Shown here: positions 32,154-38,230 of the stretch, one piece after another
How positions within the stretch are numbered: position 1 is the stretch's first letter
Layout: each line of letters opens with the position of its first letter
From: Minisyncoccota bacterium
GTDB lineage: Bacteria > Patescibacteriota > Minisyncoccia > UBA6257 > 2-01-FULL-56-20
Length of the DNA: 64,000 nucleotides
Assembly (NCBI GenBank): GCA_035509435.1
Contig: DATJLR010000007.1
Span: forward strand, 1,555-65,554
Reading direction: 5' to 3'
Made by a program: the position numbers and the translations under genes
The notes under the pieces: model-generated
Told to the model about the DNA's origin: nothing
Seen by the model: the letters and a program-made list of their open reading frames with translations, nothing else
Databases searched by the model: none

Positions 32154-32499
32154 TCACTACTTTGTTGATCTCTGGTTGTAGATCAGAAATGATAATGCAA
32201 GTCAGCATTGGGATGGTTGGCGGGATCATTAGTACGTCTTGGCTAAAGCCGTTGCCAGCCTTACACCGAACGCCTATCAACGTCATAGTCTATGACGAGA
32301 TCACGCATACCTAATCTTGGGGTGGGCTTCGCGCTTAGATGCTTTCAGCGCTTATCCCTTCCATACATAGCTACCCGGCAGTTCACCTGGTGGCAAAGCC
32401 GGTAGACCAGAGGTATGTTCAGCCCAGTCCTCTCGTACTAAGGCCAACTCCCCTCAAGTATTTCACGCCTGCAGCAGATAGAGACCGACCTGTCTCACG

Positions 32500-33268
32500 C
32501 AATTTCTTCTTCTATCGCCATTACTGGCGGGTTGGACTATACCACCATCTCCACTGAGATGATCGACGTGTTAGTCCGGCATGATTGCCGGACTCCAGCT
32601 CGTAATGAGCTAAGTCTCTAAGGGGTCAATGCATGATATTTCCGCTTTTTTGAATAATTCAGAAAGCGAAAACGTTCTACTAATTCTGCCAACGCTCGAA
32701 AATCATCTTTACTTTGAATTTTCGATTTAGCATCGAGGATTTGGACCATCAGATCGGCTTGCTCACCTTTCAGTATCAGGAACCCACGAACTTCGCCGAG
32801 AAACGATCTGATCGCCTCTTCGCGCGCGATGGTATATTCGATCATGCCATCATTGCGTTCGCGGATATATCCCAAGTTAATAAGCGAACAAATTTCTTCA
32901 AATTTGCGCTGATCTTTTTTGGATTGGAAAAGCACGATGCAAGGAGCTATTTGAAATCCATATCGATAAGTCGAGTTAGATTTCATCCTTACATAGATAC
33001 TCCCATCTCCATCCAGAAATCCTGCTATGTATGCTTTTTGCGTTGACGAAAGACTTTTCATACACGACTTCCCTCGGTATTATCCTACGATCTCACGTCT
33101 CATCAAACTAGTTTTTAATCTATTTTTAATAAGCGTTACGATACATCCCAGGTCAGGATGTTAGGACTTCACCGATATGAGTCGATTTTGCTATCTCGAT
33201 CGCTCGAGAAAGCCGCCGTTTTTGTTTTAACAGTTTTTGATGTACCTTCGATCGGGTTATCTTCGTTG
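32500..33268 (-). mobile_element. Group I intron at 23S position equivalent to E. coli U2593 (I-CreI site)
   Basis: 5' exon ends ...GGGTTCAGACCGT and 3' exon resumes CGTGAGACAGGTCGG. The intron begins CAACGAAG and ends ...AATTG (omega-G). It is ~770 nt and includes a LAGLIDADG ORF. Confidence 0.75.
32618..33061 (-). CDS. LAGLIDADG homing endonuclease (single-motif, I-CreI-like)
   Basis: 147 aa; IAGFLDGDGSIYV motif; encoded inside the 2593 intron. Confidence 0.85.
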   Translation of the reverse strand: MKSLSSTQKAYIAGFLDGDGSIYVRMKSNSTYRYGFQIAPCIVLFQSKKDQRKFEEICSLINLGYIRERNDGMIEYTIAREEAIRSFLGEVRGFLILKGEQADLMVQILDAKSKIQSKDDFRALAELVERFRFLNYSKKRKYHALTP

Positions 33269-34269
33269 ACGGTCTGAACCCAGCTCACGTGCCACTTTAA
33301 TTGGCGAACAGCCAAACGCTTGGGAGCTTCTACACCCCCGCGCTGTGGCGAGCCGACATCGAGGTGCCGAGCATTGTCGTCGCTAGGGACGCTCGGACAA
33401 TACTAGCCTGTTATCCCCGGAGTAGCTTTTATCCGGTGTCTCCGGCCTTTCTATTAAGAAGCCGTCGGGTCACTAACTTCTGCTTTCGCACCTGCTCGTC
33501 TTGTATGACTCGCAGTCAAGCCAGCTTTTGCGTTTGCACGTCCTGCCCGATTTCCATCCGGGCTAAGCTAACCTTAATAAACTCCTCCGTTACTCTTTTG
33601 GAGGAAAACGCCCCATTTAAACTGCCTACCAAGCACTGTCTTAGCGGAGTTTCCCCGAAGGGTTCTCCGCCAGTTAGACGTCAAAATTCTGAAAATGGCT
33701 GTTTCATTGTCGGATCCACGTCACCCGAAAGCGACGCTTCAAATCCTCGCCACTACACTACGTAACAGAACTCTGAAATCAATACCAAGCTGCAGTAAAG
33801 CTTCCGGGGTCTTTTCGTCCCGCTGCAGGTATCCCGCGTCTTCACGGGAATCGCATTTTCACCGAGCTCATCGTTGAGACAGTTCTCCGGTCGTTACACC
33901 TTTCGTGCGCTTCGGAACTTACCCGAAAAGGAATTGCGCTCAAACATGTTACAACACTTTTTGTTGGCCAAAACATTTCTGCTTGGCTCTCTGTGTCGCC
34001 ACAGAGTTCGGACTATATCTTATCGCCTTGCGGCGATCCTAACGTGTAGTCTCTGAGGATCCTTCAAAAGAAGTTTCCTGCTGATTTTCCGCATCGATCA
34101 AAGATTGTTACCTTGCGGTACTTTGATATGCGCGGGTGTTCCAGCATATAGTTAGGTTTTACTAAGGCAATGCAATCACCTTAGAACGATTCTTTTACGT
34201 TATCACCCGCTCGTTTTTTAATTTAAGCGGGATCCTCATGGTCGCCCATGAGATCGGACTATATCATCT

Positions 34270-34827
34270 CTAAAAACTTTTAGAGTCTGGCGTATAGTCT
34301 CTGAGGATTCCTTGATAGTCTATTTCTACGTCTATTACGTTGTATTTACGCCTTCTTCCTCTTCCCTCATTTAAATTTTCCCTGATAGCGATAATTTCTT
34401 GCAGTCCTTTTGGATCAAGGTGTTTGCCTTGCTCCATAAGAAATGCAATTTGTTTGAACAGGAGAAAATTTTTCTTTTTTGATGAAGAAAAGAAAGGAAA
34501 CTTTTCGAAAAACGGTATGACGCGATCAATGATCGAACGATAATCGCCGACGACGAAGTAATGCACTCCGTCTTCACGATTTTGCAATCGTCCGCAACCT
34601 AAATGACTTTTTAATAATTCCAAATTGGCGATATCGCGCTGGGCCACGTTAAAGGTCATTTGCACCTGCCATCCAAGGCGATGCCCATTCCCTTTTCGAA
34701 GAGAGACATTAAAACTTCCCTCTCCATCCGTAAAACCAGAAAGATACCAGCCAATGTTGTCTGGAATTTTCTCAAGCCATTCACGGTTATACCAAGGCCT
34801 TTCCTGCTGATTGTCTGCACCGATCAT
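34270..34827 (-). CDS. LAGLIDADG homing endonuclease (single-motif)
   Basis: 185 aa; LSGFTDGEGSFNVS motif. Confidence 0.85.
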   Translation of the reverse strand: MIGADNQQERPWYNREWLEKIPDNIGWYLSGFTDGEGSFNVSLRKGNGHRLGWQVQMTFNVAQRDIANLELLKSHLGCGRLQNREDGVHYFVVGDYRSIIDRVIPFFEKFPFFSSSKKKNFLLFKQIAFLMEQGKHLDPKGLQEIIAIRENLNEGRGRRRKYNVIDVEIDYQGILRDYTPDSKSF

Positions 34828-35762: not shown

Positions 35763-36113
35763 TTTTTCAATGCTTTTTGTAAGATTGGTCAATTCTTTGC
35801 CGACGATCGCGTATTGCTCGGAAAGGAATTTGTATTGTTCATCGGAAAGTAACTCCACTTTCCGCATGAATTCAAGATTGAACGCTATTTCATCCGCTGA
35901 TCCCAAGGAATCTTTCAGATGATTGATCGTGTCCTTCTTTGATTTCTTCCGTGCGAACCCTTCCGCGATGTTTGAGGGAATTGAACGTGAGGCCCGCCGT
36001 ATTTGATCGGCAAGCTCCAGTTTATATTCCTTCGGCAATGAAAGAGATATTTTATGAACCTTTATTGCAAGTTCGAACGATCTTTTGAACACATCAAGAT
36101 CTTTGTATATCAT
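35739..36113 (-). CDS. 23S rRNA intervening-sequence protein (four-helix-bundle, TIGR02436-like)
   Basis: 124 aa; FELAIKVHKISLSLPKEYKLELADQIRRASRSIPSNIAEGFARK. Sits at a helix-45-like position (~E. coli 1170-1200) flanked by complementary motif blocks. Confidence 0.8.
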   Translation of the reverse strand: MIYKDLDVFKRSFELAIKVHKISLSLPKEYKLELADQIRRASRSIPSNIAEGFARKKSKKDTINHLKDSLGSADEIAFNLEFMRKVELLSDEQYKFLSEQYAIVGKELTNLTKSIEKSTRFTSN

Positions 36114-36162
36114 CCTTCCATTGAACCATTTCTCGCATTAACTCTTTCTTAAATCTTTTCCT

Positions 36163-36204
36163 TGTTACTAGTTCCTAGTTACCAGTAATCAGTTACCAGT
36201 AATC
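36163..36204. repeat. IVS 5'-flank motif block (partner of 35724..35762)
   Basis: cttgttactagttcctagttaccagtaatcagttaccagtaatccg. Confidence 0.7.
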
Positions 36205-38230
36205 CGTATCTTCGGTACCATGCTTAGCCCCGGTACATTTTCGGCGCCACGACCCGTCGAATAGTGAGTTGTTACACACTCTTTAAAGGATGGCTACCTC
36301 TAAGCCAACCTCCTATCTGTCTATGGGTCATGACTACCTTTTACACTTAGCATGGATTTAGGGACCTTAGATGACGATCTGGGCTCTTCCCCTCGCGACC
36401 ACGGAGCTTAGCCCCCGCAGTCTAACTAGCAAGATCTTGACTCTCGGTATTCGGAGTTTGATTGATCGTTCGGTCTTTCGACCTGTAACGATCATCCAGT
36501 GCTCTACCCCCAAGAGGAACTCTTGCCGCCAGTCCTAAAACTGTTTCGGAGAGAACCAGCTATTACGTTATTCGATTAGCTTTTCACTCCTTACCTCAGC
36601 TCATCCGAAGATTTTGAACAATCAACCGGTTCGGGCCTCCCTCCCGATTTCTCGGGAGTTCACCCTGGCCAAGGCAAGCTCATAACGCTTCGGGTCTATC
36701 TTGTGCTGCGATCCCACTCAAATTTTTGGAGCCGTGACAAATCCACGGCGATGCGGTATTTTTATGATTAGCTTCTCCTCCACGGGAGGCCGTATGTTCT
36801 CAGGACACAGCCCCGATCCCATGCTTCAGGGCCTCACTTCCTTTCTCATGGAAGCAAACCCGATTGCCTGGGGAGTGCTTGCCGTCGGTGTCGCATTGCT
36901 TATCGTGGCCATTTGGAGCATGCACCACGAAAACAAAACCCCGACCTGCAAGTGACCAATCTGCCAAAACACCTGCCCGCTCACGCGCGCGGGTGTTTTC
37001 TTTTGGCGCTCACGCGCCGCTTATTTCTCCAAAAATTTGAGTGGGATGTGCGCCCTATTCAGACTCGCTTTCGCTGCGCCTTCACGCTATGCGCGCTTAG
37101 ACAAGCAACACAAAATAAGTCGTTGGATCATTCTTCAATAGGCACATTGTTCCACTCGTCCGCGGATTGCTCCGCAGCCGTTCGTGGTTCAATTCCTTGT
37201 AGACAAACGGTTTCAGGTTCTATTTCAACGGCCTCACCGGCCTGCTTTTCACCTTTCCCTCACGGTACTTGTTCACTATCGATCTAGAAAAGTATTTAGC
37301 CTTACCTGATAGTACAGGTGTATTCCTCCGGAACTGTTTTACTCCGAAGTACTCAAGTTAAAAAACTAAGGAGACCAAAAGTTTTCGTCTACGGGGCTAT
37401 CACCCGCTCTGGCGCCGCTTTCCAGACGGCTTCGACTAACCAATGATTTTTTTACTCCTCCACCTCCCAGCGAGTAACGCAACGTACACTTGCGTGCGCG
37501 CTACGTTACTTGCTAAAAGAGCGTTTTTTACTGAACCCCAAGATCGTGATAAATCACAACCTTAGTTTGGGCTCCTCCCCGTTCTCTCGCCGATACTTAG
37601 GGAATAACTGATTTGTTCTATTTTCCTCCGCTTACTGGAATGTTTTACTTCAGCGGGTACGCGATCCGCTTGCGCGGAACAATTGAGGGTTACTCAACTA
37701 GGTTTCCCCATTCGGAAATTCCCGGATCACAGGTTGCTACGCACCTCCCCGAGACATATCGTTGCTACGCCACGTCCTTCATCGCCTTTTCTAGTCTAGG
37801 CATCCACCGTTCGCCCTTATTTGCCAACCATCCCAATGCTGACTTGCTCGTGGATCACAGCGAAACGCCGCAATCCACTTGCCATCAGTAAGAAAAATTC
37901 TTACCGATGCTTTGACCCTGTCCGTCACGAGAAATTGACTACATATGCGTATGCAGCGATCCGGCCCACCCGCAATGCGGATGTTAGCGACCGGACCTAA
38001 TAGTGACACAGGGTCTCCATATTATGTCCTCCGACTCTACAATTCGGAGTTCCGCCAAATCGGCGAATGATTTGAAATAGCATTTGCTCAGCATCGCGAG
38101 ACGCTGCAAGACACGGACCGCCAAGAAAAAAATCAGCCGCACACAGCGGCCGCTGACTGCTTCAAAGAAGCGGCTTCAGCCGGAGTGTTGTGAGAGATTT
38201 AAAGTCTTGACCATTCGTATCTTGAGGATA

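Follow-up and report, generated by a model that had tools for sequence, protein, structure and literature searches.

Three group I introns and three stem-bounded inserts in the 23S rRNA gene of a Minisyncoccia-type bacterium, with a candidate antisense small-protein gene

Which elements interrupt the 23S rRNA gene of a bacterium of the candidate phyla radiation (CPR), and do the remaining exons still add up to a normal 23S rRNA? This question is raised by a 64,000-nt stretch of DNA from a Minisyncoccota bacterium (GenBank assembly GCA_035509435.1, contig DATJLR010000007.1, positions 1,555 to 65,554 of the forward strand), called the window below. The 23S rRNA precursor encoded there is about 5.6 kb long, of which about 2.7 kb is inserted DNA. 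An earlier annotation (the original prediction) had listed three insertions: a group I intron at the site of the homing endonuclease I-CreI, one insert of about 1.1 kb near helix 69 (H69), and an intervening sequence (IVS) with a protein gene. Three was too few; a pair of tandem introns, a hairpin in helix 68 (H68) and a 335-nt insert in domain II with a candidate gene on the antisense strand had not been listed. With a probability of about 0.85, the window holds the single 23S–5S unit of a CPR bacterium of the Patescibacteria/Minisyncoccia type, and this unit carries six insertions, three group I introns (A, B and C) at L1917, L1931 and L2593, which are classical homing sites, and three stem-bounded inserts.

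Organization of the 23S rRNA gene

The predicted 23S rRNA gene is present; it lies on the minus strand and is followed by a 5S rRNA gene. Numbering of E. coli (Ec) follows rrlH (locus L001), the BLASTN reference for the colinear exon blocks.

32212-37830, minus strand: interrupted 23S rRNA gene (Rfam LSU_rRNA_bacteria RF02541, 1749.6 bits, and BLASTN with E. coli rrlH)
37830-34951, 34191-34178, 33940-33269 and 32499 to about 32212, minus strand: 23S rRNA exons
31949-32060, minus strand: 5S rRNA gene downstream of the 23S rRNA gene (Rfam RF00001, 54.3 bits)
37810-37568, minus strand: BLASTN block Ec 21-270
37440-37382, minus strand: BLASTN block Ec 291-348
37303-37196, minus strand: BLASTN block Ec 422-530
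36640-36204, minus strand: BLASTN block Ec 725-1163
35556-35507, minus strand: BLASTN block Ec 1350-1399
35330-35225, minus strand: BLASTN block Ec 1600-1704
35175-35091, minus strand: BLASTN block Ec 1770-1854
33940-33268, minus strand: BLASTN block Ec 1932-2594
32499-32311, minus strand: BLASTN block Ec 2594-2782

A covariance-model scan for large-subunit (LSU) rRNA, suggested with the original prediction as a check, found the 23S rRNA gene, but it missed the micro-exon described below and placed the 3' end at 33157. This end was rejected, as BLASTN puts the last exon at 32499 to about 32212; the Rfam end was misplaced because the covariance model failed to bridge intron C. The two ends of the gene form a perfect 25-nt processing stem, in which 37847-37823 (5' leader and helix 1) pairs with 32221-32197. 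Expansions in the region of Ec 272-290 were common to all relatives and look lineage-wide.

The 23S rRNA spliced in silico is about 3.85 kb long, and about 2.95 kb without the three stem-bounded inserts (3' end taken as 32190). The spliced RNA aligned to the E. coli sequence without gaps at Ec 1895-1965 and Ec 2560-2625, matching at 55 of 71 and 56 of 66 positions, respectively. The G+C content of the rRNA stretch was 45-49%, and that of the whole window was about 58%. The Rfam scan found no other LSU rRNA gene and no small-subunit (SSU) rRNA gene in the 64-kb window, and the 16S rRNA gene and the 23S–5S unit appear to be unlinked in the source genome.

Introns A and B flank a 14-nt micro-exon in H69

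Read along the minus strand, the H69 region consists of a 90-nt H68 hairpin, intron A, a 14-nt exon and intron B.

34192-34950, minus strand: intron A, group I, 759 nt, after U1917 (pairings, a weak Rfam match and orthologues)
34270-34827, minus strand: HE-A, gene of a single-motif LAGLIDADG homing endonuclease, 185 aa (PF00961)
34178-34191, minus strand: micro-exon AAUCGUUCUAAGGU, 14 nt, Ec 1918-1931, consisting of the 3' strand of H69 and CUAAGGU
33941-34177, minus strand: intron B, group I, 237 nt, without an open reading frame (ORF), after U1931 (Rfam RF00028)

The exon before intron A ends in GUCAGCGAUAACUAU, the last base of which is U1917, and the exon after intron B starts with AGCGCAAUUCCUUUUCGGGUAAGUUCCGA at 33940, which is Ec 1932. 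Intron B matched the full group I intron model RF00028 (model positions 1-253, window 34187..33989) with 68 bits and an E-value of 4e-15, against a gathering score of 50. Its P1 is formed by CUAAGGU, the last 7 nt of the micro-exon, and GCCUUAG (7 bp), its P10 by GAUUGC and GCAAUU of the 3' exon (6 bp), and its terminal base is G. Intron A matched RF00028 weakly and in its 3' core, with 22.4 bits and an E-value of 0.007. The P1 of intron A, AUAACUAU/GUAGUUAU, has 8 bp with U1917.G at the splice site, and its P10, AACGAUU/AAUCGUU, has 7 bp; the guide sequence runs 5'-AACGAUU and then GUAGUUAU-3'. The strands of P3 (UCUGGC/GCCAGA), P7, P8, P9 and P9.1 of intron A are complementary, and its last base is G. 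The micro-exon is thus divided between the two introns, with nt 1-7 in P10 of intron A and nt 8-14 in P1 of intron B. A P1 with U.G at the exon end, a P10 and a terminal G were present in all three introns of the gene, weakly so in intron C.

HE-A matched PF00961 with an E-value of 1e-20 and 75 bits (cut-off 23.1) and carries the motif GFTDGEGSF. It aligned to single halves of I-SmaMI and I-OnuI at E-values of 1e-41 to 1e-43, and it also matched the homodimeric structures 5gkk and 3e54. The ORF starts in P5, runs through the P6 loop, J6/7, P7 and P3', and stops in P8.

Homologues of HE-A supplied natural alleles of the gene. One genome, the Minisyncoccia metagenome-assembled genome (MAG) SPRUCE_130 (L002, 93% identity), and four metagenome contigs (L004-L007) were matched, at identities of 76-93%, with peat metagenomes among the sources; the closest genome to the source is a Minisyncoccia MAG. 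The introns are distributed among them as follows.

Intron A (L1917): 759 nt in the window, 742 nt in L002 and L005, 853 nt in L004, 727 nt in L006; also present in L007
Micro-exon: 14 nt and identical in the window, L002, L004, L005, L006 and L007
Intron B (L1931): 237 nt in the window, 245 nt in L004 and L007, 450 nt in L002 and L005; absent from L006
Intron C (L2593): 769 nt with a homing endonuclease gene in the window, 355 nt without one in L002 and L005

In L006, which has intron A and no intron B, AATCGTTCTAAGGT is continuous with AGCGCAATTCC and the micro-exon is contiguous with AGCGCAAUUCC. The sequence AATCGTTCTAAGGTAGCGCAATTCC is therefore uninterrupted there, which is proof of the micro-exon and of where intron B starts and ends. 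In L004, P3, P5, P6a, P8 and P10 of intron B differ from those of the window and every pairing is kept by compensatory changes; P3, for example, is CCUAAC/GUUAGG in one orthologue and UUCGGC/GCCGAA in another. The 5' half of intron A of L006 (the sequence of P3 to P5) is 86.5% identical to intron B of the window over 89 nt, and introns A and B are therefore paralogues.

Joining the exons gives the predicted junctions GAUAACUAU, AAUCGUUCUAAGGU and AGCGCAAUUCC, in this order. The spliced H69 sequence is GCGAUAACUAUAAUCGUUCUAAGGUAGCGCAAUUCC, in which the stem is kept (A-U, G.U, C-G, G-C and A-U). Together with the gapless alignment at Ec 1895-1965, this indicates that H69 is intact. The original prediction had suggested that the H69/1931 junction may be remodelled; this does not hold, as the 3' strand of H69 and CUAAGGU are found in the micro-exon, and the proposed check that H69 is restored after splicing came out positive. 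An insertion with a LAGLIDADG ORF is indeed present in the region, but it is not a single insert of about 1.1 kb; the H68 hairpin, intron A, the micro-exon and intron B take its place. The direct repeats reported there also exist, as two motifs that occur twice each: ATCCTCAGAGACTA at 34295-34308 and 34047-34060, and GATATAGTCCG at 34255-34265 and 34009-34019, with zero chance matches expected for either. They are the conserved cores of two related introns, J6/7-P7 (AUCCUCAGAGACUA) and J8/7-P7' (GAUAUAGUCCG), once per intron, and are not a transposon signature.

Several observations on the relatives stand apart. The L002 copy of HE-A has a reading frame that stops early, at 175 aa. Intron B of L002 has about 213 extra nt in the P6 loop (L002 6756-6975; L005 has them too), and a check of this extra sequence for a degenerate endonuclease showed no LAGLIDADG-like ORF. 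An independent Logan assembly (L003, SRR8879132) is 100% identical to 37078..34950 of the window over 2129 nt, which argues against an assembly chimera. It ends exactly at the last base that the unspliced and the spliced intron A 5' junction have in common, a sign that the sample of L003 may contain intron-less or spliced sequence.

Intron C at the I-CreI site and its endonuclease

32500-33268, minus strand: intron C, group I, 769 nt, after U2593, the I-CreI site (junctions and Ec alignment)
32618-33061, minus strand: HE-C, gene in the P6 loop for a LAGLIDADG homing endonuclease of the I-CreI family, 147 aa (PF00961)

A group I intron of about 770 nt after U2593, ending in G, had been predicted, and it was found with 769 nt and a LAGLIDADG ORF. 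At its junctions, GACCGU precedes the first base C of the intron and CGUGAGACAG follows its last base G; in longer form, GGGUUCAGACCGU is followed by the intron (CAACG to AAAUUG) and this by CGUGAGACAGG. U2593 was confirmed by alignment: GAACGU is Ec 2588-2593, and the 769-nt insert therefore follows U2593 and ends in G. The predicted spliced junction joins GACCGU to CGUGAGACAG.

The intron C core in the window scored 21.5 bits against RF00028. The ORFs of introns A and C interrupt the cores, which is why both stay under the gathering score in the window. The ORF-less 355-nt orthologue of intron C in L002 reached 42.6 bits (E-value 1.1e-9), still below 50, with P3 to P9 aligned and a 40-nt insertion of the P7.1/P7.2 type between P7 and P3'. 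P2 of intron C covaries between the window and L002. The Rfam group I scan, likewise put forward as a check, thus matched intron B above threshold and introns A and C more weakly. A guide model built by hand gives intron C a putative P1 of 4 bp (CCGU/GCGG) and a putative P10 of 3 bp (CGU/ACG).

HE-C matched PF00961 with an E-value of 1e-11 and 46.1 bits (cut-off 23.1). Its residues 10-142 aligned with residues 10-142 of I-CreI, and I-MsoI and I-CvuI were matched too; all three are enzymes of the L2593 site. HE-C is 34% identical to I-CreI, with the catalytic positions GFLDGDG, FQ and LK aligned. A single motif, these catalytic positions and an intron at the cognate site place HE-C in the I-CreI family. 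HE-C had 2452 homologues at E-values up to 1e-10, and those with a source name at NCBI come from Liptonbacteria, Giovannonibacteria and 'Patescibacteria group' MAGs, which are CPR groups. Candidate intron-less targets of the endonucleases are GCGATAACTATAATCGTTCTAAGGT and CAGACCGTCGTGAGACAGGT.

Three stem-bounded inserts

35723-36201, minus strand: IVS of helix 45 (H45), about 479 nt, with a long closing stem, in place of the H45 tip (about Ec 1164-1185)
35739-36113, minus strand: ORF of an intervening-sequence protein (IVP), 124 aa, located within the H45 IVS and read on the sense strand (PF05635 23S_rRNA_IVP, E-value 1.1e-28)
34991-35080, minus strand: H68 insert, a near-perfect 90-nt hairpin without an ORF, IVS-like, in place of the H68 tip
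36712-37046, minus strand: domain-II insert, 335 nt, IVS-like, at about Ec 652-656, absent from L002 and L004

The third insertion of the original prediction, with a four-helix-bundle IVS protein, was borne out by the H45 IVS. The ends of this insert pair over a long stem in the predicted fold, and its ORF matched PF05635 with 100 bits (cut-off 33.8). In L002, L004 and L008, another 23S rRNA locus, about 22 nt stand at the H45 site in place of the IVS. The replaced tip, the long stem, the PF05635 ORF and the patchy presence are those of a helix-45 IVS.

The H68 hairpin has a predicted dG of -61 kcal/mol for 101 nt, and L002 and L004 have about 20 nt at this site instead. The H68 hairpin and the H45 IVS stem have in common the motifs TTACTAG.AAT.AGTTACCAG and GGTAACTAG, a weak match (E-value 0.008), and the hairpin is possibly a relative of the H45 IVS that consists of the stem only.

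The sequence GGGCG stands on one side of the domain-II insert, and the 3' strand of the neighbouring helix on the other. The insert ends on both sides in a perfect 20-bp inverted repeat, TCCCACTCAAATTTTTGGAG (37046-37027 and 36731-36712), which occurs at only these two places in the window (0.01 chance matches expected), and its predicted fold closes on this 20-bp stem. In L008, this site holds an insert too, and its arms are identical. A search of Rfam (E-values up to 10) returned no family for the insert beyond noise (Trp leader terminator-like, mir-1275 and Acido-Lenti-1), and an 18-nt repeat arm had one unrelated single match in viral contigs, with no inverted partner. The insert may also be a transposon, namely a miniature inverted-repeat transposable element (MITE); no target-site duplication is visible at its junctions, and no further copies occur in the window.

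At L004 3327-3451, near helix 25, 124 nt stand against about 36 nt in the window (37188-37151); these roughly 85 extra nt, absent from the window, mark a further variable insertion site in the lineage.

A candidate antisense gene in the domain-II insert

36794-36955, plus strand: antisense ORF, 53 aa, with one transmembrane helix (GGGAGG 4 nt before the ATG)
36734-36762, plus strand: promoter-like site GTGACA-17 nt-TATTTT, a candidate from a consensus scan
36974-36995 and 37004-37019, plus strand: pair of hairpins with T runs, terminator-like, located downstream of the antisense ORF

The domain-II insert contains an ORF on the strand opposite to the rRNA, and its position makes the gene complementary to the 23S precursor over its full length. 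With an alternative start codon, the ATG at 36764, the protein would have 63 aa. The hydrophobic segment is IAWGVLAVGVALLIVAIWS. When 1.84 billion representatives were scanned in full with HMMER, one homologue came up, P0122, with 55 aa, 43% identity and an E-value of 8.7e-4, and a word-indexed search of 5.8 billion proteins matched the ORF only to itself. A profile search brought no further members, and no Pfam or NCBIfam family matched the protein at threshold, families of described toxins included.

P0122 is encoded at L008 794-961; L008 is another, related 23S rRNA gene that has this insert too, with the P0122 gene at the matching place in it. L008 is 97% identical to the window at 36201-36741 and 86% identical at 36966-38079. 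Its insert has the same repeat arms, a GTGACA-17-TATAGT site and GGAGG, and the first terminator hairpin is conserved. A 19-residue Kyte-Doolittle window reached about 2.4 in both the 53-aa and the 55-aa protein.

Between the antisense ORF and P0122, 30, 35 and 12 of 51 codons are identical at the first, second and third positions, respectively (chi-square p = 1e-5), and 16 of the 23 identical residues are encoded by different codons. This comparison with its one other copy shows a signature of purifying selection in the aligned sequences. The antisense frame is the only frame open in both copies. A coding frame on the rRNA strand was considered and rejected: a stop interrupts it in the window, conservation is lacking at its ends, and its BLOSUM score is lower (57 vs 104). 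The G+C content at third codon positions (GC3) of the antisense ORF was 0.68, near the host mean of 0.725, and that of the homing endonuclease and IVP ORFs was 0.39-0.45.

Proposed maturation of the rRNA

The three introns would splice themselves out of the precursor, which would rebuild H69 and the peptidyl-transferase region. HE-A and HE-C would act as homodimers that cut intron-less alleles and spread their introns by homing. By analogy with the known behaviour of IVSs, the three stem-bounded inserts would be cut at their double-stranded stems by RNase III and not re-ligated, leaving a fragmented, functional 23S rRNA.

Several points weigh against this account. Splicing, RNase III cutting and rRNA fragmentation are read from the DNA sequence. 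Introns A and C score below the Rfam gathering score in the window, and the modelled guide of intron C is weak, with its P1 of 4 bp and P10 of 3 bp and a distance of about 50 nt from the splice site. The domain-II site is not a classical IVS helix (H25 or H45); its stem and patchy distribution are IVS-like. An L1931 intron in Simkania is reported as unspliced, and splicing is therefore not to be taken for granted.

Alternative explanations

The H69 region could be read as one intron of about 1.1 kb with internal direct repeats and a remodelled H69/1931 junction, as BLASTN with E. coli leaves one gap from Ec 1854 to Ec 1932, the LSU covariance model does not recognise the micro-exon and two motifs occur twice each. 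This reading is refuted by L006, which has the upstream intron only and continues as AATCGTTCTAAGGTAGCGCAATTCC. Furthermore, the region contains two full intron cores, and P1, P10 and a terminal G are present separately for each, the micro-exon is conserved in five loci in which the intron lengths vary independently, and the spliced sequence is the canonical H69; we give a single intron practically no chance. It is also improbable, though not to the same degree, that the inserts are retained, be it in a dead rRNA pseudogene, in a chimeric assembly or as introns kept in the mature rRNA. An insert left at 1917, in the H69 loop that forms intersubunit bridge B2a, or at 2593, in the peptidyl-transferase ring, would be incompatible with ribosome function. 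The independent assembly is 100% identical across three inserts, the exons are conserved at functional sites, and the intron cores, guides and endonuclease catalytic motifs are intact and covary among relatives. The window has no second LSU or SSU rRNA gene, and CPR genomes usually have a single rRNA copy, as Tsurumaki et al. (PMC11270868) state. In favour of retention, removal is predicted here from the DNA sequence, the Simkania L1931 intron is a reported case of an unspliced intron, and the break of L003 exactly at the 5' splice site of intron A could reflect assembly ambiguity. The reading with three self-splicing introns and three excised inserts is preferred over both.

The antisense ORF is probably a real protein gene. 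It is doubtful that the frame is open by chance, within an insert that encodes a structured RNA. Such a frame would fit the facts that only two members are known, that no Pfam or NCBIfam family was matched, that one frame of the opposite strand with the same third positions is partly open, and that rRNA is widely mis-annotated as protein (PMC3203614). It would not be expected to give the codon-position pattern and the different codons for identical residues described above, to be the only frame open in both copies, or to have a GC3 close to that of the host and unlike that of the endonuclease and IVP ORFs. The ATG, ribosome-binding site, stop, promoter-like site and terminator also stand at equivalent places in both copies, and both proteins have a transmembrane segment. 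That the domain-II insert is an undescribed kind of rRNA passenger, an IVS-like element in which a self-contained antisense gene for a membrane protein, with its own promoter, ribosome-binding site and terminators, is silenced by rRNA transcription, is a long shot. Its antisense mRNA would be fully complementary to the abundant 23S precursor, and rRNA transcription would silence the gene, as the two RNAs would form a duplex and be cleaved by RNase III. Production of the protein would then be confined to times of falling rRNA synthesis, which is the logic of a type I toxin–antitoxin system tied to ribosome production; a toxin-like reading with the pre-rRNA as antisense RNA is speculation.

Neighbouring genes

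38356-38427, minus strand: tRNA-Pro(CGG), on the rRNA strand, between the 23S rRNA gene and the next pair
38585-39080, plus strand: gene pair of a ribbon-helix-helix (CopG) protein and a ParE toxin, about 750 nt upstream of the 23S rRNA gene
50121-50729, minus strand: ORF of 202 aa with a Colicin E5 ribonuclease domain (PF12106, E-value 2.6e-23), located where the G+C content is lower (48-52%, from 48 to 52 kb)
20320-20394, plus strand: tRNA-like gene called by ARAGORN with a two-base 'anticodon' and an encoded CCA end, below the threshold of the Rfam tRNA model

Significance

The gene is a useful annotation case, because standard LSU models give it a wrong 3' end and fail to recognise the micro-exon; natural alleles without single inserts mark every boundary. 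Introns A and B offer a natural system in which the order of splicing and the skipping of exons can be studied for tandem group I introns. If the antisense gene is expressed, removable rRNA inserts may be safe harbours for protein genes on either strand, and a testable link between rRNA transcription and the control of a small membrane protein would follow.

Comparison with known systems

The layout of homing introns and IVSs is already known for the CPR group. In the survey of Tsurumaki et al. (2024, PMC11270868), 82% of CPR 23S rRNA genes had insertions; it describes LAGLIDADG_1 ORFs at 1917, 1931 and 2593, ORF-less versions at the same sites, IVS-type inserts, IVP ORFs, and single-domain LAGLIDADG endonucleases.

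Synechococcus sp. C9 has group I introns at L1917, L1931 and L2593 of its LSU rRNA gene (Haugen et al. 2007, PMC1995217), the same three sites and thus the same 14-nt exon between the first two. It also has single-motif LAGLIDADG endonucleases, an L1917 ORF from P6 through P7, P3 and P8, an L2593 intron extended by P7.1/P7.2 and short in its P2, features also seen when the L002 orthologue was aligned by Rfam, and introns of 743 and 748 nt, compared with 759 and 769 nt here. In contrast, its L1931 intron has 666 nt, against 237 nt without an endonuclease gene here; its host is a cyanobacterium and not a CPR bacterium, and the three IVS-type inserts are extra here.

In passages on the Coxiella burnetii gene for 23S rRNA, an H45 IVS of 428 nt with an S23p ORF (Warrier et al. 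2016, PMC4990558) and two group I introns on either side of a 34-nt exon, of which one is at L1917 (Raghavan et al. 2007), are described. The H45 IVS with an ORF of the S23p/IVP family and a LAGLIDADG gene in one intron are shared with the present gene. Going by the same passages, the present gene differs in that its second intron is at L1931, the exon has 14 nt, all three introns end in G, and an L2593 intron and two further stem-bounded inserts are present.

The intron C site and endonuclease resemble the I-CreI intron of the Chlamydomonas reinhardtii chloroplast LSU rRNA gene, with the same site after U2593, the same endonuclease family, alignable along the full length, and matching D/Q/K positions. 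The ORF of that intron also lies in a peripheral loop of a group IA-type intron, as here. The two differ in that identity is only 34%, one is organellar and the other bacterial, and the half-sites are slightly different (GACCGUCGUGAGACAGG here).

The candidate antisense membrane-protein gene in the insert is the part of the locus of which we could not find a published description: full-text literature searches found no paper on an antisense protein gene in a bacterial rRNA insert. A word search of the main text of Tsurumaki et al. (PMC11270868), figures aside, gave no occurrence of 'antisense'; that text presents sense-strand Pfam-annotated ORFs and 'uncharacterized' inserts, unlike the antisense gene here. 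The antisense gene is the part of the finding with real upside. In yeast, TAR1 is a protein gene wholly within the rRNA gene and on its opposite strand; it is eukaryotic, longer and not in a removable insert. Type I toxins such as Hok and TisB have about 50 aa, a single transmembrane helix and an mRNA fully complementary to an abundant RNA. The size, single predicted transmembrane helix and cis-antisense overlap of the 53-aa ORF match the pattern of these toxins.

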